Source: an uncultured Actinomycetota bacterium (lineage in GTDB: Bacteria; Actinomycetota; Actinomycetes; Mycobacteriales; SCTD01). From it: a DNA stretch of 64,000 bases. The notes under the pieces are model-generated. The model was not told the origin of the DNA and did no database searches. It saw only the letters and a list, made by a program, of their open reading frames with translations. Each line of letters starts with the position of its first letter. Position 1 is the first letter of the stretch. The position numbers were made by a program, and so were the translations under genes. Positions 1,335-41,056 of this stretch are shown one piece after another. The stretch covers positions 3,342 through 67,341 of the forward strand of contig CAVXBV010000010.1 of assembly GCA_963760125.1 (NCBI GenBank), given 5' to 3'.

Positions 1335-2636
1335 CTACGCGTTCGCACCGACGGTGTCCTGCAGGAGCAGCTCGAGCGCCCGCAGCGGGGAGAGCACCTT
1401 GCAGTAGTGGTTGCCGGCGAACTCGGGGTTGAGCTCGGTGTCCGACAGCTGCGTGACGAGAGAGGGCGACTGCACCTGCCAGCGCCCGGTCGTCGGGTCG
1501 GTCGGAGCCAGCAGGAGCGGGGAGAACACCCACTGCGGCCCCGCCGAGGTGGCCTGGTCGGGGAGCACCGCCACGCCTCCTGACCGGGCACGGGCAGCCG
1601 GCGAGAGCACCGCGAGACCCGCAGCGATCGTCGCCTCGGTGAAGCCGGCGCAGGTGGGCGGCGTGCTGTCGACGCGCCGGTAGTCGTCGTACACCGCCTG
1701 GGCGATGGCGGACCGCGACTTCGTCTTGCACATCACCTCCGCGGCCCCAGCTCGGGTGCCGTCGACGACGTAGGAGTTGGTGGTCACCCGTGCCGTCGAT
1801 CCCTCGTCCACGAGCTCCGCCTTGTCGTACAGGAAGCCTCCGAGGTCGCGTTCGGCGACGCCGTCCGGTGTCGGAGCCACGAGGTCGATGTCGGCCCTGT
1901 TGGCTATCGCGAGGAGCCCTTCCTCGGCGAGGTCGGCCGTGTGCGCCTGCAACGAGGAGCACACCGCACCCCCCTGGGCCACCACGGCTGTGCGCACGGC
2001 GGAGACGAGCGCGTCGGCGGCGAGGCGGGCATCGAGGTCGCTCTCCAGGCCGAGCTGACGGCGGACCAGGGAAGCCAGGGCCTCGCCGGTGGACGGGCCG
2101 GCCAGGGCAGCGCGGTCCGCGGCGGGCAGGACGAGGACGTCGCCCGTCCGACCTGCCACGGCGTCGACGACCGGCACCAGCCGGTCGAGCTCTCCGAGCA
2201 CCTGCAGCGTCGCTTCCTCGTCGGCGCCAATGGCCGCCGTGCCCGCGAGGTCGTGGGTCTCGCCGAGCGAGGTCGCGGAGGCAGCAGCGTCGCCGAAGCC
2301 GGCCACGACGACGGCGCGGTCCGAGCCCGAGAATCCTGCTGTGCGGGCCGCAGCGATTGCCGAGGCATAGGTCTGCTCCCCGGCGATGCGCCCGGGCGTG
2401 GTCAGCGCGACCCAGAGGCGGAGTCCGCCCGCGGCCGCTTGCGCTGCGGCGGCCACGGGTCGCAGCTGCTCAGTGGTCGTACCGGTGGCGCCCAGGAGGA
2501 CCAGCAGCGCAGGGTGCGCCTTACCGGGCTTGGTGGGTGGCAGCACCGTGGGGCCGTCCACGACGGGCAACGCGTTGGCGTGGGGCACGACGACGGCCGA
2601 GACGGCGAGCACAGCCAGGACGAGGAGACGGCGCAC
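1335..2636 (-). CDS. Secreted hypothetical protein with a possible degenerate alpha/beta-hydrolase N-domain and a Cys-containing C-domain
   Basis: Signal peptide MRRLLVLAVLAVSAVVVPHANA; C-terminal MCKTKSR and GNHYCKVLSP; last gene of the minus-strand operon. Confidence 0.65.
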   Translation of the reverse strand: MRRLLVLAVLAVSAVVVPHANALPVVDGPTVLPPTKPGKAHPALLVLLGATGTTTEQLRPVAAAAQAAAGGLRLWVALTTPGRIAGEQTYASAIAAARTAGFSGSDRAVVVAGFGDAAASATSLGETHDLAGTAAIGADEEATLQVLGELDRLVPVVDAVAGRTGDVLVLPAADRAALAGPSTGEALASLVRRQLGLESDLDARLAADALVSAVRTAVVAQGGAVCSSLQAHTADLAEEGLLAIANRADIDLVAPTPDGVAERDLGGFLYDKAELVDEGSTARVTTNSYVVDGTRAGAAEVMCKTKSRSAIAQAVYDDYRRVDSTPPTCAGFTEATIAAGLAVLSPAARARSGGVAVLPDQATSAGPQWVFSPLLLAPTDPTTGRWQVQSPSLVTQLSDTELNPEFAGNHYCKVLSPLRALELLLQDTVGANA

Positions 2637-2638
2637 GA

Positions 2639-3949
2639 TCAGCTCCGGGGTGAGGTGGGGACGGTGGGTTGCTCAAGGGGGACGACGACGCGACCGCGGA
2701 TGATGAGCCCGTACACGAGCACCCCCACGCTGGCGAAACCGAACAGCGCGAACGGTGCAGCGGGCCGCCACAGGTCGTACAGCTGACCGCCCACCTCGAG
2801 GGCGAACAGGATGCCGAGCGCTCCGAAGGCGGTGAAGACCCCGACGACGGAGCCGCGGATCCGCGGCACAGCCTGCTGGCCGATGAGCACCGTGCTGGCG
2901 ATGACCCCGCCGACCTCGCCGACGCCGATGAGCACCGCGCAGGCATACATCCCCGCGCCCAGCGGGTCGCTGATGAGAAGCGTCGACGTGTAGCCGACGG
3001 CCGAGATCCCGCAAGTGATCAGCAGCGCGTCGACCCGCGGGATCCGGTCCGTGAGCTTGCCGATGAGCGGGGCCGACAGCAGGGCGCACGTCTGGGCGAT
3101 GCCGATGACCGCCCCGGCCTTGGCGAGGGCCTCGTTGGAGGTCAGGCCTCGCTCGTTGGTGCCGAAATCCTGCAGCCACAAGGTGAAGAAGGTCCCGACG
3201 ACGGCCAGGTTGCCGCGCGAGAGGAACGCCGCCGCGTAAGCCAGGGCGATGCCCGGGTCACGGCCGGCGCTCAGACCCTGGCGCAGCAGGACCGACAGAG
3301 GTGGTGCCGTCTCCCGCTCGGCGACGTTGTGCGCGGGGAGGTCGCGCCACAGCCAGAGGGCCAGGGCGACGCACATCAGCGCCACGACGCCGTACGCGGC
3401 GCGCGCCGCGTCGACCTCCGACAGGCCGGCCCTCTCGAAGCCCTTGGGCAAGGAGACGAGGCCGAAGACCGTGAGGACGGCACCGAAGCCGTTCATCACC
3501 CCGAGCAGGCCGGCCGCTCGTCCTCGGGAAGGGAGCGCGGCGAAGTCACTGACGACCGTCGAGATCATCCCCGCCACCGCCGCGGCGCCGAGGGCGAAGA
3601 CGATGCGGAACAGGCCGAGCTCCAGCACCGATCCGGCAAAGGGCGCGAGCACCAGGCCGAGCGCGACGAGCAGGAAGCCGCCGACAAAGACCGGCCGCCG
3701 GCCGATGCGGTCCGACAGTGAGCCGAAGAAGCCCACCGTGAACAAGATGATGACCTCGCCCGCAACACCGATGTGCCCGCTGGCGCTGCCCTTCTCCCCC
3801 TCGGGGACGCCGATCAGCTCGAGCAGCGTGCTCTGCGCGGCCGCGATGAAGGTGAACGCGGCAAGCCCGAACAGGCAGGCAGCGTAGAAGGCGCGCATGT
3901 TGCGGCGAGTCACCCCGGCGGCCAACGTCACGCCCCAGTAGGTGATCAC
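2639..3949 (-). CDS. MFS transporter
   Basis: About 12 hydrophobic segments and MFS motif A (GSLSDRIGRR; GKLTDRIPR). Start reassigned to GTG 3949, which overlaps the upstream stop (GTGA). Confidence 0.9.
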   Translation of the reverse strand: MITYWGVTLAAGVTRRNMRAFYAACLFGLAAFTFIAAAQSTLLELIGVPEGEKGSASGHIGVAGEVIILFTVGFFGSLSDRIGRRPVFVGGFLLVALGLVLAPFAGSVLELGLFRIVFALGAAAVAGMISTVVSDFAALPSRGRAAGLLGVMNGFGAVLTVFGLVSLPKGFERAGLSEVDAARAAYGVVALMCVALALWLWRDLPAHNVAERETAPPLSVLLRQGLSAGRDPGIALAYAAAFLSRGNLAVVGTFFTLWLQDFGTNERGLTSNEALAKAGAVIGIAQTCALLSAPLIGKLTDRIPRVDALLITCGISAVGYTSTLLISDPLGAGMYACAVLIGVGEVGGVIASTVLIGQQAVPRIRGSVVGVFTAFGALGILFALEVGGQLYDLWRPAAPFALFGFASVGVLVYGLIIRGRVVVPLEQPTVPTSPRS

Positions 3950-4848
3950 GGCACGACCTCGGGCGCGACGTCGCGGGCGAAGGCCTCCCAGCTCGACAGG
4001 ATGGGCCCCAGGTCCCAGTCGGTCGGGGCCTCGAGGTAGGAGGGGCAGTCGCGCAGGATCCGCTGCAGCAGGGGCGGGGGTACGTCGTCCAGCCCGCGTC
4101 GGGCCGTGCGGCTGAACAGCCGTCCGAAGAGCACACCGTCCACGCCGCTCCCCATGCGCATCCACGGCCACCACGGCGACAACCGGGAGAAGCCGGCGCG
4201 GAAGTGGGCCGACGGCGCGCTCGTGTCGGAGAGCTCCGACAGCGAGGTGTAGATCGTGAAGTGCTCGGACGGGTTGATCGTCGGTCCCGTCGAGGCCGTC
4301 GGCCAGCGCACCGGGTCGACGGGGTTCGGGTAGCAGTGGGCGTAGTCCCACTCGAGGAGCACCTCGTCGCCGTACACCTGCCAGGGGAGGACGAACGGCA
4401 CGGTGCCGGAGGCATCCGCAGCGGGGGCCGAGCCCTCGTTCATGAGAGCCTCGTCGGTCGAGTCCCCGACGGTGAGCCGTGGCATCTCGAGACCGAGCTC
4501 ACCGCCGATGCGGTCGTTGAGGAACGGGGAGACCTCGACGCGCTGGCCGGTGAAGGGGTTGTCCCAGTGGTCGATCACCGCGCCGGTCGCGAGGTCGGTG
4601 AAGTAGCCGGTCTCCTTGCCTCGCAGCTGCACGTGCCCGTTGTCGAGCAGGCGGCAGACGGTGACGCCCGTCCCGACGTACCCGAACAGCGGTTGCAGGC
4701 GCTCGCCCGCGCGGGAGGCGAACATCGTGCCGTGGAAGATCCCGAGCACCGGGTCGCCGAAGCTGGCCCACAGCTTGCCGAACGCGGCAACGTTTGCCGC
4801 CGGGTCGATCGGGTCGAAGGCAGGGAGCGTCCCGCCGGGCGCTCGCAC
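3946..4848 (-). CDS. DUF1838-like protein
   Basis: DPAANVAAFGKLW..., LQPLFGYVG, WDNPFTG and RLSPWWPWMRMG resemble the DUF1838 family as I recall it. Confidence 0.65.
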   Translation of the reverse strand: MRAPGGTLPAFDPIDPAANVAAFGKLWASFGDPVLGIFHGTMFASRAGERLQPLFGYVGTGVTVCRLLDNGHVQLRGKETGYFTDLATGAVIDHWDNPFTGQRVEVSPFLNDRIGGELGLEMPRLTVGDSTDEALMNEGSAPAADASGTVPFVLPWQVYGDEVLLEWDYAHCYPNPVDPVRWPTASTGPTINPSEHFTIYTSLSELSDTSAPSAHFRAGFSRLSPWWPWMRMGSGVDGVLFGRLFSRTARRGLDDVPPPLLQRILRDCPSYLEAPTDWDLGPILSSWEAFARDVAPEVVP

Positions 4849-4851
4849 CGG

Positions 4852-6129
4852 CTACTTCTTCTGGTCGAGGGTGGCGAGGCCGGCGTAGCCCCGGCCCTCG
4901 ACGACGGTCTTGGCCGTGTCCAGGCGGCCACGGGTCGAGGGGAAGGCCTGGACGAGGCCCATGGCGGCGTCGCGCATCGCGCGTCCCAGGGGCCCGTCCA
5001 TGACGGCCGTGGAGGTCCCGCACATCTGGAACGACGCCATGACCGTGGCGAAGGAGTCGTCGCAGATCGAGCCCTTGGACAGCCGCCAGGTCTTCACGAC
5101 CTCCTCCTTGGGTGCGACCGGCGGGTCACTGCTCTCGAGCAGGAGCTGGCGCCGCAGCCACAGGTGAGCGCTCTCCAGCTTCTGCTCGGCCTCGCCGATG
5201 AACACCTGGTGCATCGGGCTGGTCGCCAGCGCCGCACCGGTGTCGGCGAACGTCAGGGTCATCGAGCGGTCGAGGGCGTACTCGTAGGCACCGCGGGCGA
5301 TGCCGGCGTAGATGGCCGCGATGGCGACCTGGTTGCCGACCCACGAGCCGCGGCTGACCTGGGTCGCACGGCTGAAGCCGCCGGGGATCGTGAGGGAGAG
5401 CTCGTCAGCGACGAAGGCGCCGTCCAGGACGATGCCGTGGTTGGCCGACGCGCGCATGCCCAGGCCGTTCCAGACCGTCCGGTTGCGGACGCCGTCCTTC
5501 GTGCGGTCGACGAGGAACAGGCACAGCGACTCCATCCCCTCGAGGTCGTCGCGCCGCGCGGTGACGAGGTAGTAGTCGGCCGTACCGGTCAAGCAGCCGA
5601 AGGACTTCTCGCCGTACAGCTGCCAACCGCCCTCGACCCGCTTGGCCACGGTCTGGATGAGGACGCTGGCGTTGCTGGCCTTGACCGCTTCGCTGGCGAA
5701 GTTGCCGATCCACAGGCGGTCGCGGCCCAGGCCGTGCAGGACCCGCTCGGCGAAGGCCCGGACGACAGGCGCCTCCTCGTCGGTGTAGAGGCCGGCCTCG
5801 ATCGCGGCCAGCGGGAGGAGCCCGCGGCTGCTGGAGGAGCAGTGGAAGAAGAAGGACAGCGCGGTGGATCCACACACCGTGCCCAGGGCGTACGTCGTGG
5901 CGGTGAGGTCGCGCAGGCCGCCGCCCATCCCGCCGTACTCCTCGGGAACGACCAGGCCGAGCAGGCCGGAGTCGCGGAACAGGCGCACGTGCGCCTCAGG
6001 GAACTCCCCGGCGGCGTCGGCCTCGGCGGCGAGATCGCGAATGGCCGGGAGCACCCCTTCCACCACGGCCGCGCGGCTGCGCTCGGCGTCGGTCAGGTCC
6101 TCGATGAGCCGTTCTGCGGTGAGTGCCAT
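4852..6129 (-). CDS. Acyl-CoA dehydrogenase-family protein, probably the oxygenase of a two-component flavin monooxygenase
   Basis: GLLGLVVPEEYGGMG, GEKSF and WNGLGMRASANH motifs; divergent from a flavin reductase gene. Confidence 0.8.
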   Translation of the reverse strand: MALTAERLIEDLTDAERSRAAVVEGVLPAIRDLAAEADAAGEFPEAHVRLFRDSGLLGLVVPEEYGGMGGGLRDLTATTYALGTVCGSTALSFFFHCSSSSRGLLPLAAIEAGLYTDEEAPVVRAFAERVLHGLGRDRLWIGNFASEAVKASNASVLIQTVAKRVEGGWQLYGEKSFGCLTGTADYYLVTARRDDLEGMESLCLFLVDRTKDGVRNRTVWNGLGMRASANHGIVLDGAFVADELSLTIPGGFSRATQVSRGSWVGNQVAIAAIYAGIARGAYEYALDRSMTLTFADTGAALATSPMHQVFIGEAEQKLESAHLWLRRQLLLESSDPPVAPKEEVVKTWRLSKGSICDDSFATVMASFQMCGTSTAVMDGPLGRAMRDAAMGLVQAFPSTRGRLDTAKTVVEGRGYAGLATLDQKK

Positions 6130-6144
6130 GCCCGGACTGTATCT

Positions 6145-6157
6145 GGAACAGTGTTCC
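6145..6157. promoter_or_regulatory. Palindromic operator GGAAC-AGT-GTTCC
   Basis: Perfect 5-3-5 palindrome in a divergent intergenic region; recurs at 12439, 28920 and 29011. Confidence 0.75.
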
Positions 6158-6185: not shown

Positions 6186-7166
6186 GTGCCAGTCGAACCC
6201 GAGGAGGCCGCCATCGGCACCGTTGACGCCGCGGCCTTCCGTGCGGTCCTGGGCCAGTGGCCCACGGGGGTCACGCTGGTGACGACGCTGCACCAGGGGG
6301 CGCCGTACGGCGTCACCGCGAGCTCGTTCAGCAGTGTGAGCCTCGACCCCCCGCTGGTATCGGTCTGCCTTGCCCGCAGCGCTTTTGCCCACGACCTGGT
6401 CCGGGACGCGGGGTTGTTCGGGGTCACCATCCTCGGAAAGGACCACGCAGGGCTGGGGATGGCCTTTGCGCGCTATCAGGCAGGTGTCGACCGCTTCGAG
6501 GGCAACGACTGGGTCACCGCCGAGACCGGGGCACCGCTGCTCGCGACGTCCCTCGGCTGGCTCGACTGCCGCGTCGCCCACGCGTACGACGGTGGCGACC
6601 ACACGATTTTCGTCGGTGAGGTCCTGGCGGCCGACACCCCTCGGACGACGTCGCCGCTGCTCTACCACTCGCGCACGTGGGGCCAGTTCGCCGACCAGCT
6701 GCCGGACGAGGTCGTCCTCGTGCGGCCGGACAGCAGCGACATCGCTGTCGTGGCGGGTGACGAGGGCTCGTTAGGGCTCGCCGTCGCGGCGCTGCAGCGG
6801 TCGAGCGACCTTCATCGCCGGCCTCGGCTGGTCGTCGAGGGCGCCTTCGGCGTGAAGCCGCTGCTGCTGGCCGAAGCGCTCGCCGTGCTCGCTGCCCTCG
6901 GCCCGGATGAGATCGTCCTCGTCGATGACGGCACCGTCACGCCGGTGCAAGTCCGCGAGGGCTGCCGTGAGGCGGTGCTCTCGGTGCGGCCGGTACCGCT
7001 CGCCGTGCGCGTCTCCGCGGCTGCGGGCCTCGGGCAGGCCAACCTGCTGACCGTCCTCAAGAGCGGCGTCTCCCGCCTCGACGTCGGCCCCGGTTCGGTC
7101 GATCGCGCCACCATCGCCCTGCTGGTCGACAGCCTCGACCTCCGTCTGCAAGGAGAATCCTCGTGA
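6186..7166 (+). CDS. Flavin reductase domain fused to a degenerate HMG-CoA-lyase-like domain
   Basis: FRAVLGQWPTGVT, SFSSVSLDPPLV and GGDHTIFVGEV. The C-terminal EIVLVDDGTVTP...GLGQANLLTVLKSGV resembles the HMGL barrel. Start is uncertain (likely GTG near 6186). Confidence 0.8.
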   Translation: MPVEPEEAAIGTVDAAAFRAVLGQWPTGVTLVTTLHQGAPYGVTASSFSSVSLDPPLVSVCLARSAFAHDLVRDAGLFGVTILGKDHAGLGMAFARYQAGVDRFEGNDWVTAETGAPLLATSLGWLDCRVAHAYDGGDHTIFVGEVLAADTPRTTSPLLYHSRTWGQFADQLPDEVVLVRPDSSDIAVVAGDEGSLGLAVAALQRSSDLHRRPRLVVEGAFGVKPLLLAEALAVLAALGPDEIVLVDDGTVTPVQVREGCREAVLSVRPVPLAVRVSAAAGLGQANLLTVLKSGVSRLDVGPGSVDRATIALLVDSLDLRLQGESS

Positions 7167-8596
7167 GCCTGCCTCCGTTGTCCGACCTCGTGGACGGGGA
7201 GAAATCCGCCCCGACGGTGGACCTCGGCACCTGGCTCGAGGACCCCAACACCGGCGAGCAGGTCCAGCTTCAGGTCGCGACCGATGCTGCGACGCTCGAA
7301 CGCGCTGTCTGCGCGGCGCAGCGGGTGCACGAGGCAGGAACCTGGTCCGGGCTGTCCGCGGACGCCCGGGCCGACTGGCTCGAGAGGTACGCCGACGCGC
7401 TGGCCCCCCGTTGCGCGGAGGTCGCACGGTTGGAGTCGCTGACCACGGGCGCGCCGATCAGCCAGACCTCCATGCTGTCGTTCATCGTGCACGCGGCGTT
7501 CCGTCTTGTCGCCGAGCAGCTGCGGGCCGGACTGCTGACCCGAACCTACGACGGACCCGCCGGCGACGTCGTCGTCCGCCGGCTCCCGCTCGGTCCGGCC
7601 CTGTGCCTGGTCCCGTGGAACGCCCCCGCACCCATGGCCGCCCACAAGGTCGCGTCGGCTCTGGGCGCCGGCTGCCCCGTGATCCTCAAGCCGTCGGAGT
7701 TCGCCCCGCACGGCAGCGGGGCCCTCGCCGACGCCGCGGTCGAGATCGGCTTGCCTGCGGGGGTTTTCCAGCTCGTCCACGGGGACGTGTCCGTCGGCAA
7801 GGCGCTGGTGGACGATCCGCGCATCCGTGCGGTCTCCTTCACCGGAGGACTCGCCGGTGGGCGCGCCATCGCCGCCGCGTCGGTGGAGACGTTGCGTCCG
7901 GTCCAGCTCGAGCTCGGTGGGCACAACGCGCTCGTCGTCCTGCCGGACGCTGACCTCGACCAGGCAGCGGGTGCGGTCGTCGGGCTGATGACGACCCTGA
8001 ACGGCCAGTGGTGCCGCTCCCTCGGTCGCCTCGTCGTCCCCGCCGAACTGCAGGACGACCTGCTGGCTCGGGTGCTGGCACAGCTCGCCGACGTACGTCT
8101 GGGGCACTGCCTCGACGAGGCGTCGCAGATGGGTCCGATCGTGCACAGCGGACACCTCGCCCACCTCCGTGCCCGCACCGAAGCGCTCGGCGGCAAGGTC
8201 CACACCGCTACCCCGCTGCCCGACCTCACCGGCAACTTCCTGGCGCCCACGCTCGTGACCGGAGTGGCGTCGGACGACGCGCTGCACGAGATCTTCGGAC
8301 CGGTCGCGACCGTCCACGCCTACGACACGGTCGACGAGGCGGTCGCCCTGGCGAACGCGACGCCGTACGGGCTGGAGGCCTACGTCGTCGGGACCGACAC
8401 CGAGGAGGCCCTCGCCGTGGCGGGTCGGATCCGGGCCGGCGGGGTCAAGGTCAATGGGGTCTCGCCGCTGTCGCTTCACCTCATGGCGCCCCGCCCGGCG
8501 TGGGGGCTGTCCGGGCTCGGCGCGGAGGGGACCATCGAGACGATCACGTTCTTCACCGGCGAGCAGGTCGTGGGCGTGGAGGGCTTCCCGGGGTGA
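7163..8596 (+). CDS. Aldehyde dehydrogenase
   Basis: PWNAP, LKPSE, SFTGG, LELGGH, NGQWC and EIFGPV motifs. Confidence 0.93.
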   Translation: MSLPPLSDLVDGEKSAPTVDLGTWLEDPNTGEQVQLQVATDAATLERAVCAAQRVHEAGTWSGLSADARADWLERYADALAPRCAEVARLESLTTGAPISQTSMLSFIVHAAFRLVAEQLRAGLLTRTYDGPAGDVVVRRLPLGPALCLVPWNAPAPMAAHKVASALGAGCPVILKPSEFAPHGSGALADAAVEIGLPAGVFQLVHGDVSVGKALVDDPRIRAVSFTGGLAGGRAIAAASVETLRPVQLELGGHNALVVLPDADLDQAAGAVVGLMTTLNGQWCRSLGRLVVPAELQDDLLARVLAQLADVRLGHCLDEASQMGPIVHSGHLAHLRARTEALGGKVHTATPLPDLTGNFLAPTLVTGVASDDALHEIFGPVATVHAYDTVDEAVALANATPYGLEAYVVGTDTEEALAVAGRIRAGGVKVNGVSPLSLHLMAPRPAWGLSGLGAEGTIETITFFTGEQVVGVEGFPG

Positions 8597-12389: not shown

Positions 12390-12438
12390 AGCTCCTCCTT
12401 GACAGGTGACGGGCCCGGAGCCGACAGTTTCGCACAAA

Positions 12439-12451
12439 GGAACGCTGTTCC
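12439..12451. promoter_or_regulatory. Palindromic operator GGAAC-GCT-GTTCC
   Basis: Lies in a divergent intergenic region, downstream of TTGACA (12399-12404). Confidence 0.75.
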
Positions 12452-12473
12452 AAAACACCTGAGGAGCTCATCG

Positions 12474-22185: not shown

Positions 22186-22267
22186 GGTCTCTCCTCGATC
22201 GGGGCCGCTTATCCGATACGGAACGTACTGCTATCTGATTAGCAGCACAAGATGTACCGTCAATGCC

Positions 22268-26646: not shown

Positions 26647-26649
26647 GCG

Positions 26650-28919: not shown

Positions 28920-28932
28920 GGAACACGGTTCC
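28920..28932. promoter_or_regulatory. Palindromic operator GGAAC-ACG-GTTCC
   Basis: Exact match to the motif in a divergent promoter region. Confidence 0.75.
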
Positions 28933-28973: not shown

Positions 28974-29023
28974 TTGACAGTGGTGATCTCTGGGCCTAGC
29001 GTTCAGAACAGGAACACTGTTCC
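28974..29023 (+). promoter_or_regulatory. Promoter TTGACA-N17-TAGCGT with operator GGAAC-ACT-GTTCC (29011-29023) at the transcription start
   Basis: Consensus -35, 17-bp spacer, and the operator 8 nt downstream of the -10. Confidence 0.8.
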
Positions 29024-36084: not shown

Positions 36085-36088
36085 TCTC

Positions 36089-37231
36089 ATGCTGAAGAAC
36101 TTCTGGTACGCCATCGCGTTCACCAAGGAGATCACCGACAAGCCGACGCGCCACAAGGTGCTGGGGCAGGATCTCGTGCTGTTCCGCCAGAAGCGCAGCG
36201 GCAAGGTCATCGCGATGAGCGACCTGTGCGTGCACCGCGGTGGCGCGCTCTCGGGTGGCTGGCAGGACGACGACGACTGCCTGGTCTGCCCCTACCACGG
36301 CTGGCAGTACGACGGCGAGGGCAAGGTCGTGAAGGTCCCCGCCAACCAGCCCGGACGACCTATCCCGAAGAAGGCGCGCGTCGACTCCTACCCGGTACAG
36401 GAGAAGTACCACTTCGTCTGGGTGTTCCTGGGTGACCTGCCGGAGGAGGAGCGGCCGCCGATCCCAGACTGGGACGAGCACTTCAACAACCCGGACATGG
36501 CGTACGTGCACGGCGAGTTCCTGTGGCAGGCGAACTACGAGCGGGTGCTCGAGAACGGCGTCGACATCGCGCACACGCCATGGGTGCACGGCGGGGCCTT
36601 CGGCAACCGGGAGAAGCCGGAGGTGGAGGAGTACGAGCCCCTCATCACACCCTGGTCGGCTGAGGCCACGACGAAGCAGAACCCGCCCAAGAAGAACGTC
36701 AAGGGCGTCAAGAAGCTCATCTACCGCACGGAGGCCAAGGACGTCGTGACGACGACCGCGTGGTACCTCCCGAACCTCATCAAGCTGCACGTTCGCCTGC
36801 CGATCGGCGAGCTCGTCATCTACGACACCAACATCCCGATCGACGAGAACACGACGCTGACCAAGTGGATCGCGTTCCGCACGTTCTTCACCGGACGTTG
36901 GGCCGACTTCGACGCGAAGCGGCGAACGCTGGAGATCTTCGAGCAGGACAAGGTCGTGGTCGAGAACCAGCGACCGGAGCTGCTGCCGGTCGACCTGGCG
37001 GGGGAGCTCCCCATGCGCAGCGACGCCATGTCCATCGCCTACCGCCGTCGGCGCGCCGAGCTCATGGATCTGGGCTGGGGCATCGAGACCGACCGCTTCG
37101 TCGGCTCCGGTCCCCGCACCGAGGCCACCGTCATCCCGTCCCCGGCGCGTCGCGACGGGGACTTCAACCGGGCGTGGGTGATGAAGGAAGTCCCTTCGCG
37201 CCCGACCGCCCCCGCTGACCAGGAGGTCTGA
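36089..37231 (+). CDS. Rieske non-heme iron oxygenase (VanA/CAO/PAO-type clade)
   Basis: CVH...CPYH Rieske ligands; ENGVDIAHTPWVH and EQD mononuclear-iron ligands. Confidence 0.92.
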   Translation: MLKNFWYAIAFTKEITDKPTRHKVLGQDLVLFRQKRSGKVIAMSDLCVHRGGALSGGWQDDDDCLVCPYHGWQYDGEGKVVKVPANQPGRPIPKKARVDSYPVQEKYHFVWVFLGDLPEEERPPIPDWDEHFNNPDMAYVHGEFLWQANYERVLENGVDIAHTPWVHGGAFGNREKPEVEEYEPLITPWSAEATTKQNPPKKNVKGVKKLIYRTEAKDVVTTTAWYLPNLIKLHVRLPIGELVIYDTNIPIDENTTLTKWIAFRTFFTGRWADFDAKRRTLEIFEQDKVVVENQRPELLPVDLAGELPMRSDAMSIAYRRRRAELMDLGWGIETDRFVGSGPRTEATVIPSPARRDGDFNRAWVMKEVPSRPTAPADQEV

Positions 37232-37233
37232 CC

Positions 37234-37953
37234 ATGCCCTTCACCACCGACTCCATCGCCGGACGGCTCTGCGTGGGCACGCTCGACAGCATCGTCGAGC
37301 GGACCGGGCTGCAGCCGGCCGTCGAGCTCCCGTTGCTCTCGGCGATGTCGCCGGACCCCGTGGGGGTGATGCGCACCTGGACTGGCGGGAAGGGTGTGGC
37401 CAAGGCGGTCTACTGCGGCCTGGCGGTCGACGCGATCGGTCTGGACTCCCACATGGTGTTCGCCTTCACCGACGGCGACAGCCTGGTGCCCCACTTCACG
37501 CTGGACTCGGTGTTCGGCCAGGGCACCTACGCCTTCCACCTCGACCTCATCCCACGCGCCGACATGGGAGCCAACCTGCAGTACGTGAACGAGGTCTACC
37601 AGCCGCTGCTCGAGGTCTACGAGGAGGTCGAGGCCCGCGAGGGGTTCAGCAAGGCTGCCATCGGTCCGCGGCAGCGAGCGGTCATGAGTCCCTGGATGCT
37701 CACGAACCGCGCCACCGAGCAGGCGTTCCTCGCGATGTCCGGACCGGTCAACGCCTATCGCGACCACTGGTTCGGTCTGCTCGACGCGGGCCTGCCTGCC
37801 GACCTGGCGATCGAGCCAGACCTCGCCGGTCGGGACAGCCGCAACCGTAACGCGCTGTTCAGCCGTGAGGTCGACCCGGTGTGGGACACCATCACCCGGC
37901 TGATCGGCGAGCAGGCCGAGCAGATCCGGCTGCAGCTGGTGAGCAATGACTGA
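37234..37953 (+). CDS. Divergent RCCR/ferredoxin-dependent bilin reductase-like protein 3
   Basis: VPHFTLD...FHLDLIPRADMGANLQYVNEVYQPL parallels VPHFG...LDYLPRADLLVDLDYLDTYYEPL of 14171; also a C-terminal LAGRD like LRARD. Confidence 0.6.
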   Translation: MPFTTDSIAGRLCVGTLDSIVERTGLQPAVELPLLSAMSPDPVGVMRTWTGGKGVAKAVYCGLAVDAIGLDSHMVFAFTDGDSLVPHFTLDSVFGQGTYAFHLDLIPRADMGANLQYVNEVYQPLLEVYEEVEAREGFSKAAIGPRQRAVMSPWMLTNRATEQAFLAMSGPVNAYRDHWFGLLDAGLPADLAIEPDLAGRDSRNRNALFSREVDPVWDTITRLIGEQAEQIRLQLVSND

Positions 37954-38881
37954 CCAGACCTCCGACTGGCAGAAGAAGATCGAGGGCCGCTGGTACGGCC
38001 GGCCATCGCTGTTCGACCACGAGGGCAACCACGTCGGCTACGAGTACGTCGATCGTGCGTCTGTCGTGAAGGACGGCGTGACGACCTACTTCATGGACAC
38101 CCAGCTCACCGGCTCGGGTCCCCTGCGCAACCGCTTCGAGCTCGGCGCGCAGTTCGCGTTCGGCGTCGTTGACTCCGACGACAACCGGATCTACACGGGG
38201 CCGGACTTCTACGGGACCGGGCAGCCGTACGGCACCTTCGTCGACGCCCACTACTACTCCCCGGGGTGGCAGGCAGACCTGGTCACGTGGAACCAGATCC
38301 TTCCCGACGGCGTCACCCAGGTGTACTCCTCGGTGCTGCACGACGGGTGGGCCGTCTGTGCCGTGTTCAACGGCGTGTACAAGTGCACCTCGGACTACGA
38401 CACCGACCCCTCGGTGAAGGAGTTCATCGACGGCTGGATCGCCGCCGAGACCGAGCGGGGCTCGCGGCCGCAGGTGCTCCCGACGAAGCAGGCCGGTCGT
38501 TGGACCGGTGAGTGCGAGGTGGTGGCCGCGGACCGCACCGTGCTGGGCAAGGACCTGGTGACCATCGACCACCAGCCGCTGTCGCTGCGGCGCTCCCGGC
38601 AGACGGTGACGTGGGACGGCCCCCTGGCCAAGACCTACACCTACGAGCGCTACCGAGACGGGGCCCGCACGCAGTACGACGGTCCTGATGTCTGGGGCAA
38701 CGCGACGTCGTACGGTCGCGCGCTGTTCACCAGCCAGCACAGCGACAACGGCACCTGGAAGGTCAAGGGCCGTGAGTTCCTCCTCAACGAGGAGCGTGAG
38801 CTCGCCGTCGCCTGGGAGCACTTCGAGGGCGACACGCTGACTCACGTCGTGCACGGCCTGCTGACCTGGGAACCGTCGTGA
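37946..38881 (+). CDS. Hypothetical protein with tandem lipocalin/FABP-like beta-barrels
   Basis: Two repeats, each starting with a GxW motif (EGRWYG, AGRWTG) and containing Y(T/D)GPD(F/V)xG. Confidence 0.6.
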   Translation: MTDQTSDWQKKIEGRWYGRPSLFDHEGNHVGYEYVDRASVVKDGVTTYFMDTQLTGSGPLRNRFELGAQFAFGVVDSDDNRIYTGPDFYGTGQPYGTFVDAHYYSPGWQADLVTWNQILPDGVTQVYSSVLHDGWAVCAVFNGVYKCTSDYDTDPSVKEFIDGWIAAETERGSRPQVLPTKQAGRWTGECEVVAADRTVLGKDLVTIDHQPLSLRRSRQTVTWDGPLAKTYTYERYRDGARTQYDGPDVWGNATSYGRALFTSQHSDNGTWKVKGREFLLNEERELAVAWEHFEGDTLTHVVHGLLTWEPS

Positions 38882-39651
38882 AGGTCGTCGTCGTCACCGG
38901 CGGCACGCGCGGCATCGGCCGAGGCCTGGCTAAGGAACTGCTCGCCCAGGGCTCGCGCGTCGCGATCTGCGGCCGCACCGCCGCGGCGGTCGACAAGGCG
39001 GTCGCGGAGCTCGGGAGCGGGGTCGTGGGCGTCGTCGCGGACGTCACCGACGCGGCCGGCATGCAGAAGCTCTGGGACCACACCGTCGAGTCCTTCGGTC
39101 GCGTGGACGTGTGGATCAACAACGCGGGGGTCAGCGCGCCGCGGAAGCCCTTCGTCGACAGCGAGATCGACGACGCCTGGAGCGCCATCGAGATCAACCT
39201 CAAGGGCGTCATGACCGGCTCGCAGGTCGCGCTGCGCGGCTTCACGGCCCAGGGATCTGGCCAGCTGTGGAACATGGAGGGCTTCGGCAGCGGTGGGCAG
39301 AAGGCCCCCGGCATGGCCTCGTACGGCGCCAGCAAGCGCGCCGTCACCTACTTCACCCAGGCGCTTCTCAAGGACCTCAAGGGCACCCCGATCCAGGTCG
39401 GACTGCTCTCTCCCGGCATCGTGGCGACCGACCTGCTCGTCGGTGACTACGACAACGACCCTGTGGGCCTCGCCAAGGCGAAGAAGGTCTTCAACATCCT
39501 GGGCGACCGGGTCGAGACCGTGACGCCCTGGCTGGCGCGGCAGGTCCTCGCGACCGACAAGACCGGCGCGCACGTCCAGTGGCTGACCAAGCGCAAGGCC
39601 TTCCTGAGGTTCGCGACCGCGTTCCGCGCGCGGGACATCTTCGCGGCGTGA
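38878..39651 (+). CDS. SDR oxidoreductase, chlorophyll b reductase (NOL/NYC1)-like 2
   Basis: TGGTRGIG, DVWINNAG, WNMEGFGSGG, YGASKR, LSPGIVATDLL and FNILGD motifs. Confidence 0.85.
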   Translation: MKVVVVTGGTRGIGRGLAKELLAQGSRVAICGRTAAAVDKAVAELGSGVVGVVADVTDAAGMQKLWDHTVESFGRVDVWINNAGVSAPRKPFVDSEIDDAWSAIEINLKGVMTGSQVALRGFTAQGSGQLWNMEGFGSGGQKAPGMASYGASKRAVTYFTQALLKDLKGTPIQVGLLSPGIVATDLLVGDYDNDPVGLAKAKKVFNILGDRVETVTPWLARQVLATDKTGAHVQWLTKRKAFLRFATAFRARDIFAA

Positions 39652-40319
39652 GCATGGCGCTCGCCGTCGAGGTGGCGACGGTTCCGCTGGCCCTGGACGA
39701 CCTCGTCCCGGTCGTGCTGGCAGGGCTCGGTGCGTTCTGGCTGGCCGACCTGGTACGCCGCCGGCAGCCGGACCTCGCCTCCGTCGCGCGGACGGGGGCG
39801 GGGCTCGTTCTCCTCGGGGGGCTCTGCAAGGCCTTGTGGAAGCTGACACTCGCCGTCAGCGACCGGGACATCACGTGGCTCGCGGACGGGCTGTTCGGGC
39901 TGCTGGCACCCGGGTTCACCTTCCTGGCCTGGAGCCTGCTGGCGGTGAGGCGGCGGCGGCTTCCGCTGCCGGTCCCCGTCGGCGTCCTCGGCGTCGGATA
40001 CGCCGCGGCCCTCGCCCTCGAGACGACAGGTCCGCTGCTCGCCGTCACGGTGATCAGCTCCACGACGACGGGGGTGATCGCCCTGCTGCTGGCCCGTGAA
40101 GGGGGAGACCTGGTCGCCGCCGTCCTGTTCGGCCTCCAGCTGGCGATGGCCTACGCCCTCGTCCCGCTGGCCGGCTCCGGCCAGACCCTCTCCCGCCAGT
40201 GGTGGGAGCAGTCGCTCAACACCGTCGGGCAAGCCGCCTTCGCGGTTGCTGCCTTCCGCCTGCGCAGCAACGACGTACCTGCCTCGAACGACCTCGCCCT
40301 CATCAGGAGCACCTCATGA
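39648..40319 (+). CDS. Hypothetical integral membrane protein
   Basis: About 7 hydrophobic segments; overlaps both neighbouring genes. Confidence 0.7.
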   Translation: MSMALAVEVATVPLALDDLVPVVLAGLGAFWLADLVRRRQPDLASVARTGAGLVLLGGLCKALWKLTLAVSDRDITWLADGLFGLLAPGFTFLAWSLLAVRRRRLPLPVPVGVLGVGYAAALALETTGPLLAVTVISSTTTGVIALLLAREGGDLVAAVLFGLQLAMAYALVPLAGSGQTLSRQWWEQSLNTVGQAAFAVAAFRLRSNDVPASNDLALIRSTS

Positions 40320-41056
40320 CCGACGCCCTCGGCTGGCGCAACAAGTTCGGCGTCATCGCCCCCAGCACCAACACCATCGTGGAGCCCGAGTTCTACGCCA
40401 TGGCGGTACCCGGGGTCACGGCGCACTTCAGCCGGATCCACATCCGCAACCAGGTCATGGACTCCGACGACGGCATGGAGCGACTGCTCGAGCAGATCCG
40501 GGCCGAGATCGGCGGTGCGTGCGAGCGAGTGCTGACCGCCGAGCCGGACTACATGGTCATGGGCATGAGCGCCGAGACCTTCTGGGACGGCGTCGAGGGC
40601 AACCGGGCGTTCATCAAGCAGATCAACGACATCACCGGTCTGCAGGTCGCGACCGGAGCGCAGGCCTGCGAGCGCGCCCTCCACCTGTACGGCGCCAAGA
40701 AGATCGGCGTCGTGACGCCCTACCAGCCGGTCGGCGACGCGAACGTCGTGAAGTTCTTCGAGGAGCTCGGCTTCGAGGTCACCGCCATCAAGGGCCTCAA
40801 GTGCCCCACCGCCGTCTCGATCGCCCACGTCACGCAGGACGAGCTGCGCGACGCGATCCTCGAGGTGCACGGCGACGCCGATGCCGTCGTGCAGTGCGGG
40901 ACGAACCTGTCGATGGTCACCCTGGCCGACGAGGCCGAGCGGTGGTTGCACAAGCCGGTCATCGCCATCAACGCGGCAACCTGGTGGATGGCCCTGCGCG
41001 ACAACGGCATCGAGGACAAGGTGTACGGCGCCGGTGGGCTGCTGCGCGACTTCTGA
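40316..41056 (+). CDS. Maleate isomerase/arylmalonate decarboxylase family protein 2
   Basis: GVIAPSTNTIVE, MGMSAETFW, TPYQP and CGTNL; paralog of 22831. Confidence 0.85.
   Translation: MTDALGWRNKFGVIAPSTNTIVEPEFYAMAVPGVTAHFSRIHIRNQVMDSDDGMERLLEQIRAEIGGACERVLTAEPDYMVMGMSAETFWDGVEGNRAFIKQINDITGLQVATGAQACERALHLYGAKKIGVVTPYQPVGDANVVKFFEELGFEVTAIKGLKCPTAVSIAHVTQDELRDAILEVHGDADAVVQCGTNLSMVTLADEAERWLHKPVIAINAATWWMALRDNGIEDKVYGAGGLLRDF

Follow-up and report, generated by a model that had tools for sequence, protein, structure and literature searches.

The window analysed here, a stretch of 64,000 nucleotides from the 3.4-Mb genome (91% complete) of a soil actinobacterium, carries a gene island at about 2639-41056, and its genes were called by GC3 (Table 1). 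The island holds three paralogues of the red chlorophyll catabolite reductase (RCCR) family, a Rieske oxygenase, a tandem-domain protein, two SDRs and two paralogous esterases, together with a tandem nitrilase-type amidase, an ABC importer and enzymes of branched dicarboxylates. The weakly glyoxalase/VOC-like ORF was placed on the minus strand, where its GC3 is 0.84-0.96 versus 0.75 in the plus frame, and its start codon is uncertain (12389, 12437 or 12458). Aldehyde dehydrogenase 2 passes from frame 2 to frame 3 at about 19977-20107 by tblastn and lies in a single frame in locus L007. The FAD_binding_2 flavoprotein finds no match in the island of genome G017 and is an insertion specific to the host genome.

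Table 1. Features of the island, with positions in the window, the basis of each assignment and the number of the 80 compared loci in which the gene was found
Feature	Position	Strand	Basis	Loci (of 80)
MFS transporter, island edge	2639..3949	-	MFS_1 145 bits; kept in G017	2
DUF1838 protein	3946..4848	-	PF08894 110 bits; kept in G017	0
Acyl-CoA-dehydrogenase-fold oxygenase component, two-component flavin monooxygenase	4852..6129	-	three Acyl-CoA_dh domains; weak NCBIfam matches to HsaA, DszC, HpaB types	18
Operator-like palindrome 1, GGAACAGTGTTCC	6145..6157		56-bp divergent region, oxygenase/flavin reductase genes	
Flavin reductase, HsaB/HpaC-like	6186..7166	+	Flavin_Reduct 142 bits	13
Aldehyde dehydrogenase 1	7163..8596	+	Aldedh 352 bits	30
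Abhydrolase_1 hydrolase, PcaD/RutD-like	8593..9354	+		1
Esterase paralogue (g10762), cutinase/PETase/chlorophyllase-type alpha/beta hydrolase	10762..11634	-	paralogue of g14965	
Weakly glyoxalase/VOC-like coding ORF	11631..12437	-	GC3; Glyoxalase_4 E 0.05	
Operator-like palindrome 2, GGAACGCTGTTCC	12439..12451		23 bp upstream of CN hydrolase ATG	
Tandem nitrilase-superfamily amidase (CN hydrolase)	12474..14120	+	CN_hydrolase 149 bits	69
RCCR1, RCCR homologue	14171..14968	+	PF06405 57.4 bits	80 (by construction)
Cytoplasmic esterase (g14965), cutinase/PETase/chlorophyllase-type	14965..15945	+		61-62
Family III CoA-transferase	15947..17137	+	CoA_transf_3 413 bits	44
Methylisocitrate/2,3-dimethylmalate lyase-like (ICL-like) C-C lyase	17137..17937	+	PEP_mutase 117 bits	25
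Group A FAD monooxygenase	17934..19085	+	FAD_binding_3 179 bits	28
Aldehyde dehydrogenase 2, in two reading frames	19082..20492	+	tblastn	
TetR regulator ahead of RCCR2 sub-cluster	22319..22834	+	TetR_N, TetR_C_11	1
Maleate-isomerase/arylmalonate-decarboxylase family protein 1	22831..23574	+	Amdase 90 bits	
RCCR2, second RCCR homologue	23642..24445	+	PF06405 41.8 bits	
NAD(P)-binding epimerase/NmrA-type reductase	24442..25287	+	Epimerase, NAD_binding_10	0
Classical SDR	25289..26071	+	adh_short 141 bits; generic NCBIfam matches only	
Membrane protein without assigned family	26068..26646	+	hydrophobic segments read from sequence; no Pfam match	
CitE/RipC-like acyl-CoA C-C lyase	26650..27471	-	HpcH_HpaI, C-C_Bond_Lyase	43
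FAD_binding_2 flavoprotein, TcuA/KstD-like	27484..28902	-	Pfam, NCBIfam	
Operator-like palindromes 3 and 4	28920-28932, 29011-29023		174-bp divergent region before importer genes	
Putative lipoprotein solute-binding protein of importer	29077..30711	+	lipobox LSAC, Gly/Ser/Thr linker, position	
ABC importer genes	31268..36084	+	MFS-like domain-ATPase fusion; permease-ATPase fusion	
Rieske non-heme-iron oxygenase, alpha3 VanA type	36053..37231	+	Rieske 84 bits, VanA_C 97 bits	72
RCCR3, divergent RCCR/FDBR-fold paralogue	37234..37953	+	hhalign to profile A1	73
U311, 311-aa tandem-domain protein	37946..38881	+	internal repeat	71
Classical SDR of core operon	38878..39651	+	adh_short 147 bits	55
U223, membrane protein	39648..40319	+	transmembrane segments read from sequence	27
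Maleate-isomerase/arylmalonate-decarboxylase family protein 2	40316..41056	+	Amdase 70 bits; PDB maleate isomerase 1e-9; median identity 80%	29

A sequence-only reading of this DNA had described two clear and one divergent RCCR-like reductases, and all three were recovered: RCCR1 and RCCR2 exceed the cut-off of Pfam RCC_reductase (PF06405, 24.9 bits), and RCCR3, which has no Pfam match, aligns by hhalign with the RCCR-like profile A1 (94.5%, E 8e-8) and weakly with moss RCCR (55.6%). RCCR2 is 34% identical to RCCR1 and has a representative elsewhere at 56% identity. Searched against the PDB, profile A1 finds the Arabidopsis RCCR structures at E 9e-17 and FDBRs at 1.7e-7 or worse (64 versus 34 bits), and by sequence RCCR1 and RCCR2 are closer to RCCR than to the FDBRs. 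The profile also aligns with a moss protein listed in UniRef as red chlorophyll catabolite reductase (98.4%, E 4e-15, hhalign), the same protein that RCCR2 matches in BLASTP at E 4e-12. The earlier reading was to be given up if these proteins failed to group with RCCR; they do group with it, by profile A1 and by the moss matches. A profile search among 1.84 billion representatives returned 442 proteins at E <= 0.001, and of the 10 looked up four were of the green lineage, one of them the moss protein with its RCCR name, the others having no informative name. To our knowledge, all characterised members of the RCCR/FDBR family have a linear tetrapyrrole as substrate. Enzymes of the RCCR and Rieske types depend on electron donors; the genes recognised in the island include neither a ferredoxin nor a Rieske reductase.

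The Rieske oxygenase was likewise confirmed by its Rieske and VanA_C domains, and an alignment (A5) shows invariant Cys/His columns (C59, H61, C79, H82) and Asp/His columns (D171, H174, H179). Its proposed homology to the plant PAO step is not supported: the protein lacks a PaO domain, which was also found nowhere else in the genome, and is of the VanA/SxtT/NdmA type. Its nearest PDB entries are SxtDIOX/SxtT at 5e-49, followed by NdmA and DdmC, and these solved relatives (SxtT, NdmA, DdmC) hydroxylate or demethylate small molecules. As for U311, which had been called a tandem lipocalin-like protein, its two halves align with each other (88%, E 3e-6, hhalign) and two homologues bear the UniRef name 'Lipocalin-like domain-containing', in agreement with that description; the protein has no Pfam or PDB match, and a DUF3598/BFA1 lead (Atlas feature, 0.86) comes from its homologue P0201 and not from the window protein. 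U311 would probably fold as a lipocalin-type double beta-barrel. A paralogue, F308, is present in Acidimicrobiia loci.

Conservation was assessed by comparing 80 related loci. RCCR1, the Rieske oxygenase, RCCR3 and U311 occur together in 71 of them, spread over Actinomycetes, Acidimicrobiia and Chloroflexota, and in all 71 complete loci the latter three genes are consecutive. Lack of conservation elsewhere had been named beforehand as an outcome that would refute the earlier reading, which survives this test with the four core genes kept in 71/80 loci. The RCCR family itself is rare, being found in two of 400 sampled Actinomycetota genomes besides G000.

Other analogies with plant chlorophyll breakdown fared less well. 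The two hydrolases had been called chlorophyllase-like, but against a Chlorophyllase cut-off of 26 bits g14965 scores 21.4 and g10762 12.6, and among solved structures PET hydrolases and cutinases are nearest. The g14965 esterase scores 21 bits for PETase, again below cut-off, and finds PET hydrolases in the PDB at 1e-11; reading by eye gives a GHSGGG motif and no N-terminal signal peptide. The two esterases are 36% identical and match the same gene in related loci. Two classical SDRs are indeed present, but their supposed NOL/NYC1 likeness is not borne out by their generic SDR matches. Of the four plant steps claimed for the island, only the RCCR step stands on specific homology: PaO is missing from the Rieske protein, and the hydrolases, like the SDRs, are generic. 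NCBIfam equivalog cut-offs were reached by none of the proteins tested. A Staygreen domain (Mg-dechelatase) was not found, in a search whose control likewise gave no match, nor was a heme oxygenase. No photosynthetic reaction-centre genes were found in the 91% complete host genome.

The enzymes that had been read as acting on ring fragments are present: the CoA-transferase, the ICL-like and CitE-like lyases, two Amdase-like proteins, two aldehyde dehydrogenases, the FAD monooxygenase and the CN hydrolase. In the CN hydrolase alignment (A6) the first half has invariant E39, K111 and C144, which we take to be the catalytic triad, and a second repeat is present, this half being degenerate; in the PDB the enzyme is related to nitrilase, beta-ureidopropionase and Nit. 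The CoA-transferase matches succinate-glutarate CoA-transferase best in NCBIfam (289 bits versus a cut-off of 750), the CitE-like lyase reaches 131 bits for RipC versus 375, and the PDB relatives of the ICL-like lyase are methylisocitrate and dimethylmalate lyases (1e-43 to 1e-47). These families act on methyl-branched di- and tricarboxylates and on amides, which, we infer, is the chemistry that pyrrole-ring fragments of the alkyl-maleimide type would require.

The importer noted earlier proved to be a branched-chain-type ABC system at 29077-36084. It includes two fusion genes: the first (31268-33262) joins an MFS-like membrane domain to an ATPase, and the second (33259-36084; 23/80 loci) joins a pair of BPD_transp_2 permease domains to a LivG-like ATPase. 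The lipoprotein encoded ahead of them has no Pfam or PDB match, and it is its lipobox, its linker and its location upstream of the permease genes that suggest a binding protein. Since importers of the branched-chain amino-acid type usually carry small solutes, the system fits fragments better than whole tetrapyrroles.

The exact palindrome GGAACNNNGTTCC (GGAAC-N3-GTTCC) occurs at 6145, 12439, 28920 and 29011, each time between divergent genes; such intergenic DNA accounts for 1010 of the 38418 island bases. L007 and G017 both retain the first site in place, L007, L008 and G017 retain the second, and G017 has two sites at the place equivalent to the third and fourth. A palindrome shared by divergent promoters had been noted in the earlier reading; within the window alone its count, four against 1.95 expected, is not significant (17 of 100 shuffles reach four). 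Throughout the 3.4-Mb genome there are seven exact palindromes, as against one for the reversed control pattern, and six of the seven lie at the island's divergent promoters or around an IclR gene. This gene is found in a second locus, on contig C3, beside PrpD-like, amidohydrolase and HMGL-like genes, and homologues of these four genes occur in 30-39 of the 80 loci. In G017 the island and the IclR locus form one contiguous island of 48 kb, in which each of the six equivalent places carries a palindrome. If up to one mismatch is allowed, 44/80 loci have a palindrome in the 200 bp upstream of RCCR1, mostly at -53/-54. All three genomes of the genus that carry PF06405 have an IclR orthologue, and none was found at 1e-30 in the two searched genomes without PF06405. 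The IclR gene and an operator conserved across classes give co-regulation more support than the earlier reading could, and the regulon is probably under an IclR-family repressor with G(G/A)AAC-N3-GTTCC as its binding site.

A preprint (10.64898/2026.03.19.712979, 2026) already puts forward chlorophyll a degradation of the RCCR type for Actinomycetota, and therefore the idea of such degradation in bacteria is not new; as its main text presents it, that work is an independent arrival at a similar idea, and the former statement that no characterised bacterial pathway of this kind was known needs updating. The sole genetic test in its main text is a Shewanella hydrolase double mutant with slower pigment conversion, and that text does not describe the operon, its operator or the lower pathway.

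As an island for chlorophyll or tetrapyrrole catabolism, the locus is supported by RCCR homology, conservation and co-regulation, but not by the specific plant analogies of its Rieske, esterase and SDR proteins. In sequence, the core enzymes resemble those with which plants open and detoxify the chlorophyll ring, and the island probably lets bacteria consume chlorophyll-type pigments. We hold, with moderate confidence, that it belongs to an IclR-controlled regulon degrading a ring-opened tetrapyrrole, most likely chlorophyll-derived, to central metabolites. That the substrate is derived from a tetrapyrrole at all appears reasonably probable; its narrower assignment to chlorophyll, as pheophorbide, RCC or a phyllobilin-like compound, is tentative and somewhat short of an even chance. 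We regard a heme- or phycobilin-derived substrate as unlikely.

For a bilin-type tetrapyrrole or its fragments, the whole island would act as one catabolic regulon for import and complete degradation. Uptake would proceed through the ABC importer and its solute-binding lipoprotein, and the cytoplasmic esterases would remove an ester. The Rieske oxygenase may then oxygenate or open the substrate and the two flanking reductases, RCCR1 and RCCR3, reduce conjugated double bonds in its product, a step that we liken to PAO and RCCR of plants, while the tandem-barrel U311 might hold the pigment or pass it on. Flavin monooxygenases, SDRs and aldehyde dehydrogenases would cleave the bridges and oxidise formyl groups, giving maleimide-type ring fragments. 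From these the second-locus amidohydrolase, with the tandem CN hydrolase, could release ammonia to leave alkyl-substituted maleates. On the maleates the maleate-isomerase-like, PrpD-like, ICL-like, CoA-transferase, CitE-like and HMGL-like enzymes would act, with pyruvate, acyl-CoAs and dicarboxylates as the expected products. One protein of 777 aa consists of a CN_hydrolase fused to an RCC_reductase.

Judged by profile and alignment scores, RCCR1 and RCCR2 are true homologues of plant red chlorophyll catabolite reductase (RCCR). Both exceed the PF06405 gathering cut-off of 24.9 bits (57.4 and 41.8 bits, respectively), and they are the only genes with this domain in the 3.4-Mb genome, which is 91% complete. 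When a profile of bacterial homologues (A1) was compared with the PDB, the Arabidopsis RCCR structures were matched at 9e-17 (64 bits), while the best ferredoxin-dependent bilin reductase (FDBR), 6qwq, reached 1.7e-7 (34 bits) and HY2 0.014; several RCCR1 homologues also bear a secondary PF05996 annotation. The same profile found 442 proteins at E <= 0.001 among 1.84 billion representatives, and four of the ten looked up belong to the green lineage (Ceratodon, Spirogloea, Chlorokybus and Chlorella), the moss (Ceratodon) protein being named red chlorophyll catabolite reductase in UniRef. This moss RCCR was matched by the bacterial profile in hhalign (98.4%, E 4e-15), by RCCR2 in BLASTP (E 4e-12) and weakly by RCCR3 (55.6%). 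The RCCR analogy drawn from the sequence alone is thus a good one, and the PDB profile scores and the moss alignment place RCCR1 and RCCR2 closer to plant RCCR than to FDBRs. The divergent paralogue RCCR3 has no Pfam match, its own profile gave chance-level matches only in the PDB, and it joins the family solely through alignment to the RCCR-like profile (hhalign 94.5%, E 8e-8). In a quick FastTree tree of 43 hand-picked rows, with FDBR rows left out, RCCR1 and RCCR2 fell into a bacterial group beside the green-lineage proteins and RCCR3 stood separately. We found no RCCR1 homologue on plasmids, and our literature search gave no description of RCCR catalytic residues. A 777-aa homologous protein of Nonomuraea monospora (P0241) has CN_hydrolase fused to RCC_reductase, in the same order as CN hydrolase and RCCR1 in the island; this fusion is either natural or made by annotation.

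The RCCR1 family comprises 486 relatives in a word-indexed search, with Nocardioides, Micromonospora, Actinomadura, Streptosporangium, Mumia and Thermomonospora among the named sources. Scanning one genome per species gave 320 loci with an RCCR1 relative, and the best 80 of these were taken with 10-kb flanks; their sources are Mycobacteriales MAGs (89% and 80% identity), many Acidimicrobiia including the sponge-associated Candidatus Poriferisocius, and Nocardioides, Actinoplanes, Micromonospora, Catellatospora, Streptomyces and Chloroflexota. Comparing all window proteins with these 80 loci by tblastn, we found that the clustering noticed in the sequence-only reading is kept elsewhere as a four-gene core: RCCR1, the Rieske oxygenase, RCCR3 and the 311-aa tandem-domain protein U311 occur together in 71 of the 80 loci, with the last three genes consecutive in 71 of 71. 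The full core is missing from the other nine, which comprise two close relatives with the split layout of the window, three truncated contigs, three Chloroflexota and one Nitriliruptoria. Other cluster genes are present in the 80 loci at varying frequency (CN hydrolase 69, esterase 62, SDR 55, CoA-transferase 44, CitE-like 43, ALDH 30, Amdase-like 29, FAD monooxygenase 28, ICL-like 25, ABC permease 23), and recurrent extra neighbours are HMGL-like, PrpD-like, amidohydrolase, formamidase-type cyclase, IclR and DUF3891 genes. The actinomycete layout is a single co-directional 15-gene operon, running flavin reductase, oxygenase, ALDH, ICL-like, FMO, ALDH, CN hydrolase, RCCR1, esterase, Rieske, RCCR3, U311, SDR, membrane protein, Amdase-like. 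The Acidimicrobiia order has CoA-transferases on the minus strand, CN hydrolase on the plus, CitE on the minus, then RCCR1, Rieske, RCCR3 and U311 on the plus, followed by further barrel-type paralogues, esterase and SDR on the plus and ABC genes on the minus strand. The window carries a rearranged and enlarged version, with the core halves 22 kb apart. The family is nevertheless rare: 2 of 22 further genomes in the genus have it, as do 2 of 400 sampled Actinomycetota, but none of 18 other-genus genomes in the sample of relatives. The second Amdase/maleate-isomerase-family protein is kept at ~80% identity across genera (median, 29 loci), as against ~50% for most cluster proteins, a difference which points to an apparently unusually strong constraint on this enzyme. 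Five small ORFs that seemed conserved in related loci (F144, F127, F148, F220 and F157) were rejected as shadow frames, their translations being rich in Ala, Ser, Pro and Arg.

A shared regulatory element links the island to a second locus of the same genome. The palindrome GGAACNNNGTTCC has four exact copies in the window, each in a divergent promoter region, a count that alone is not significant (4 versus 1.95 expected); genome-wide, seven copies were found versus one for a reversed control pattern. Two of the further copies flank an IclR-family gene (IclR_C and HTH_IclR) on contig C3, which adjoins HMGL-like, amidohydrolase and PrpD-like genes, and homologues of these C3 genes lie inside the 80 RCCR loci (IclR 39, PrpD 37, HMGL 37, amidohydrolase 30). 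The seventh copy (G000:C7:415265-415277) falls within the 5' end of thiC and probably arose by chance. The related genome G017 has the two loci joined in a single uninterrupted island of 48 kb, and each of the six corresponding places there holds a palindrome. Three of three genus genomes with PF06405 have the IclR orthologue; in two complete genomes without this domain, a search at 1e-30 did not find it. With at most one mismatch, the palindrome occurs no more than 200 bp upstream of RCCR1 at 44 of the 80 loci, mostly Acidimicrobiia, the one-mismatch copies typically reading G-A-AAC-N3-GTTCC at -53/-54; allowing two mismatches gave noise (35 versus 29 expected). The palindrome that the sequence-only reading had regarded as a shared promoter mark is therefore real, and an IclR gene is linked to conserved copies of it at promoters, as in an IclR regulon. 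It is very probably the operator of the IclR regulator, and it predates the split between the classes that carry it. Between the DUF4437 cupin and TetR genes, a separate inverted repeat with ~7-base arms and a short spacer, unlike the island palindrome, is possibly a TetR operator for the RCCR2 sub-cluster.

Because of the high G+C of the window (70-73%), genes were called via third-position G+C. By this measure the plus frame at 12009-12473 is non-coding, the minus-strand ORF from 11631 to ~12437 is coding, and translation of the CN hydrolase begins with the ATG at 12474. Pfam and profile matches bear out the gene inventory first drawn up from sequence inspection, and the genes are listed in the table below. 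For nine proteins without a family, Pfam at E <= 1 yielded nothing useful; none of the proteins searched reached an NCBIfam equivalog cut-off, and the lipoprotein binding protein gave chance-level matches only in a profile search of the PDB. The window holds no Rfam family or tRNA, and in the island Pfam revealed no PKS, NRPS or other biosynthetic core and no recognisable ferredoxin gene; the reaction that characterises the RCCR family, reduction of the C20/C1 double bond of RCC, depends on ferredoxin. The second ALDH gene runs through two reading frames, with the switch at ~19977-20107, and through a single frame in the close relative L007; one base is missing at 19965 in one low-depth contig of a relative. 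Contigs from four soil runs of one study cover the gene only sparsely, and the split is either a true frameshift or an assembly error. The DUF222/HNH endonuclease gene at the left edge of the island has a homologue in G017 (G017:C12:70245-71384) that separates the IclR/PrpD/HMGL part from the remainder of the island, the same point at which the assembly of the window genome breaks between C3 and C10; the gene probably belongs to a repeated mobile element. The TcuA/KstD-like FAD_binding_2 flavoprotein gene adjoins an operator pair; neither the G017 island, collinear in other respects, nor any of the 80 loci contains a counterpart, which marks it as an apparent lineage-specific insertion.

Features of the island and its surroundings in order, with basis Pfam for named families unless another is given
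Feature	Position	Strand	Basis
DUF222/HNH endonuclease (left edge)	2-1141	-	
MFS transporter			
DUF1838			
Acyl-CoA-dehydrogenase-fold oxygenase			
Flavin reductase			
ALDH			
Abhydrolase_1			
FG-GAP			
Esterase paralogue			
VOC-like ORF			
CN hydrolase	12474-14120	+	
RCC_reductase, RCCR1 (57.4 bits)	14171-14968	+	
Esterase			
Family III CoA-transferase			
PEP-mutase/ICL-family lyase			
FAD monooxygenase			
Second ALDH (ALDH2)	19082-20492		
Secreted protein			
DUF4437 cupin			
Divergent region, cupin/TetR	22186-22318		sequence
TetR			
Amdase-family protein			
RCC_reductase, RCCR2 (41.8 bits)	23642-24445	+	
Epimerase-type reductase			
SDR			
Membrane protein			
CitE-like lyase			
FAD_binding_2 flavoprotein	27484-28902	-	
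Lipoprotein			
Small protein			
Two fused ABC components			
Rieske + VanA_C	36053-37231	+	
RCCR3	37234-37953	+	RCCR-like profile
U311	37946-38881	+	sequence
SDR			
Membrane protein, no Pfam family	39648-40319	+	sequence
Second Amdase-family protein	40316-41056		
TANGO2/NRDE-family ORF (32 bits)	41839-42534	+	
1417-aa protein	53088-57341	+	

Unlike the RCCR analogy, the further plant analogies are generic. The Rieske protein has a [2Fe-2S] Rieske domain (84 bits) as in the PAO/TIC55/PTC52 group, and its alignment (A5) has invariant columns C59, H61, C79 and H82 as well as D171, H174 and H179, which we take to be metal ligands. It consists of Rieske and VanA_C domains and has no C-terminal PaO domain (PF08417); this domain had no match across the whole window genome either, in a search whose control was positive in 3 of 14 genomes. 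Among solved structures it is nearest to SxtDIOX/SxtT, NdmA/B and DdmC. Its reading as a PAO homologue was not supported. Nor was the description of two hydrolases as chlorophyllase-like: both esterases stay under the 26-bit gathering cut-off of Chlorophyllase PF07224 (21.4 and 12.6 bits), and the best solved relatives of the esterase profile are PET hydrolases and cutinases (1e-11). A GHS-x-GG nucleophile elbow is visible in the esterase sequence, a motif that we presume to be common to chlorophyllase. The two SDRs, described from the sequence alone as NOL/NYC1-like, gave generic NCBIfam matches only, with no equivalog cut-off reached. Genome searches found no heme oxygenase, no photosynthetic reaction-centre domain (the genome being 91% complete) and no Staygreen Mg-dechelatase, the last a weak blank as its control was positive in no genome.

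U311 shows an internal duplication and may be a pigment-carrying tandem-domain protein. Two of its homologues are named 'Lipocalin-like domain-containing' in UniRef, its homologue P0201 gave an Atlas feature lead to DUF3598/BFA1 at 0.86 (<0.9), and a profile search of the PDB with U311 returned no match at E <= 10. Up to three further proteins sharing an N-terminal 'G-W-G' motif (L015:14401-15327, L041:13799-14533 and L052:1134-1592) belong to the Acidimicrobiia and Chloroflexota versions of the cluster, and one of these extra barrel-type proteins is a full-length U311 paralogue (95.8%). The same cluster versions also carry a DUF3891 protein and a Dabb-type small protein.

PAO-RCCR coupling is known from plants, and the island resembles the plant PAO/phyllobilin pathway in having RCCR homologues, a directly adjoining Rieske oxygenase, an esterase and an SDR. 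It differs in that its Rieske protein has VanA_C instead of PaO, in that no Staygreen dechelatase was found, in its three RCCR paralogues, one very divergent, and in its importer, IclR operator and full set of fragment-degrading enzymes; its aim would be nutrition, as against detoxification and storage in plants. A second comparison is with two lower routes, the itaconate/citramalyl-CoA route and, in the catabolism of nicotine and nicotinate, the maleamate/maleate branch. Four enzyme types are common to them and the island, namely amidase, maleate-isomerase-family protein, family III CoA-transferase and CitE/RipC-like lyase; unlike these routes, the island reaches no NCBIfam equivalog cut-off and has no pyridine-ring enzymes that we could see, and its PrpD-like, ICL-like and HMGL-like enzymes indicate alkyl-substituted substrates. 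FDBRs (PcyA, PebA/B, HY2 and pre-PcyA) share the fold superfamily, and the matches of the island profile to them are weak but real, the scores being much lower than those to RCCR. In the part of PMC10151467 available to us, RCCRs and related bacterial sequences form an outgroup to FDBRs, in which the bacterial RCCR-like family would belong, and pre-PcyA clusters of heterotrophs have Fe-S, V4R and globin partners that the island lacks. Two RCCR-domain genes of Nostoc punctiforme, Npun_R3279 and Npun_R3277, are called 'side-by-side' in the accessible text of PMC2716323; compared by gene numbers only, they leave a one-gene gap as in the Acidimicrobiia order RCCR1-Rieske-RCCR3. RCCR is treated as a streptophyte innovation in the text available of PMC9306834, and riboflavin catabolism, as far as PMC12746152 was accessible, is unrelated to the island.

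Our literature search found no characterised bacterial pathway with an RCCR-family enzyme, and on a bacterial phyllobilin, maleimide or RCCR-like pathway it found only the preprint of Aliyu et al. (10.64898/2026.03.19.712979). Its main text proposes 'SH-RCCR-type' prokaryotic chlorophyll a degradation from the mining of structural homologues of plant enzymes, and reports 1,193 RCCR homologues, 'complete RCCR-type' sets mainly in Actinomycetota (156, ~33%, of RCCR-type genomes), top matches within ~11 kb in Shewanella acanthi, and slower pigment conversion in a delta-PPH delta-CLH mutant, the sole one tested. The island agrees with this proposal, which concerns heterotrophs, in having RCCR-like, Rieske and alpha/beta-hydrolase homologues, and the general idea is, by that text, already in print since March 2026. 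The preprint's main text contains no operon architecture, regulator or operator, third RCCR paralogue, lipocalin-like or tandem-domain protein, amidase or lower pathway, and 'operon', 'synten', 'neighbo' and 'maleimide' have no occurrence in it.

What the sequence-only reading observed largely stands, namely the genes, their conservation and the palindrome; its interpretation of a chlorophyll/tetrapyrrole catabolism island is plausible but unproven. To our knowledge, every characterised protein of the RCCR/FDBR fold family acts on a linear tetrapyrrole. Since three paralogues of this family are kept beside a Rieske oxygenase and the tandem-domain protein, we regard a tetrapyrrole-derived substrate as fairly probable, the chances of a chlorophyll-derived one coming somewhat short of even and those of a heme- or phycobilin-derived one being small; a similarly small share of our expectation goes to none of the readings set out here. 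The main counter-arguments are that the Rieske protein is not of the PaO kind, that esterases and SDRs are generic, that no ferredoxin or reductase was recognised, and that the ABC importer is of the branched-chain type, which suggests small solutes and may mean import of fragments rather than whole pigments. Tentatively, and with some doubt, we propose a complete bacterial route for feeding on chlorophyll-derived linear tetrapyrroles, either RCC-like compounds or the phyllobilins shed in very large quantities by algae and senescent leaves. In it a Rieske oxygenase of the non-PaO kind would act jointly with two RCCR-fold reductases and a novel tandem-barrel protein carrying the pigment; a dedicated maleimide-to-dicarboxylate lower pathway would follow, and other island genes would strip esters, oxidise formyl groups and cut bridges. 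Maleimide-type fragments would be hydrolysed by the amidohydrolase and then the CN hydrolase, and the resulting methyl-, ethyl- or carboxyethyl-substituted maleates could pass through the isomerase, the PrpD-like hydratase and the ICL-like lyase or, alternatively, through the CoA-transferase and CitE/HMGL-type lyases. One IclR repressor would switch the whole system, by an operator conserved from Mycobacteriales to sponge-associated Acidimicrobiia.

The regulon may instead act on heme-derived or phycobilin-type bilins from the environment (biliverdin, phycocyanobilin or bilirubin-like compounds) or on their oxidation fragments, the Rieske protein hydroxylating a side chain or bridge with no macrocycle opening; we consider this unlikely. 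The FDBR matches of the RCCR family and the PF05996 annotations speak for bilins, as do the missing PaO domain and Mg-dechelatase and the range of carriers, which includes sponge-associated Acidimicrobiia and soil actinomycetes, and the two propionates of bilins could suit a carboxylate importer. However, the similarity is clearly greater to RCCR than to FDBRs, the Rieske oxygenase and esterase with which the family is constantly paired have no role in known bilin metabolism, and the partners described for pre-PcyA clusters in the accessible text of PMC10151467 are not seen here.

A non-tetrapyrrole substrate such as a smaller N-heterocycle, amide or alkaloid (for instance a pyrrolinone, a maleimide or a methylated heterocycle) seems improbable to us. 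The Rieske protein would then be a demethylase or hydroxylase, in keeping with its nearest solved relatives (SxtT/SxtDIOX, the caffeine N-demethylases and dicamba O-demethylase), and the proteins of the RCCR fold would serve, after recruitment, as ene-reductases acting on an exocyclic double bond. The branched-chain amino-acid type of the importer and the generic esterases and SDRs fit such a substrate, and the amidases, formamidase-like cyclase, maleate-isomerase-like proteins and FAD monooxygenase resemble pyridine/nicotinate lower pathways. Against it, three paralogues of a fold for which only tetrapyrrole substrates are known stay linked in different phyla, as do one or more tandem-barrel proteins, and the literature search found no small-heterocycle pathway using an RCCR-family protein. 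That unrelated catabolic genes came together in the 40 kb by chance, or that the cluster serves biosynthesis or detoxification, is very improbable: DUF1838, FG-GAP, cupin, TetR, FAD_binding_2 and NmrA-like genes do occur in 0-1 of the 80 loci, in the nearest relatives only, an HNH/DUF222 element lies at the left edge, and the core falls into two separate modules in this genus, but the shared operator, the co-occurrence of IclR and the conserved gene sets mark one regulon, 15 of these genes form one operon in other actinomycetes, the content is an importer with lyases, CoA-transferases and dehydrogenases, and a biosynthetic cluster was rejected as no biosynthetic core was seen.

What mineralises chlorophyll and the colourless products of its breakdown in the end, on land and in the sea, has long been a gap in knowledge; plants go no further than detoxifying and storing them, and we know of no organism in which the steps beyond RCCR are known. 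The operon is small, sharply defined and widely conserved, which makes the question directly testable; cultured carriers include Nocardioides alcanivorans and strains of Actinoplanes, Catellatospora, Dactylosporangium, Streptosporangium and Actinomadura, and the locus offers a candidate regulator and operator for ligand screening together with candidate enzymes for the post-RCCR steps. If the route does act on chlorophyll-derived tetrapyrroles, it would be a missing microbial sink for chlorophyll breakdown products, and plant RCCR would be one member of a family with many bacterial catabolic members; even with another bilin or a heterocycle, it would give a first function to bacterial RCCR-family proteins and to an uncharacterised tandem-domain family.

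Just beyond the island lies the TANGO2/NRDE-family ORF. Farther on, the 1417-aa protein has Big_9, cadherin-like and CBM96 domains and is neighboured by glycosyltransferase, PMT-type mannosyltransferase and phosphoesterase genes, a cell-envelope group with no relation to the island.
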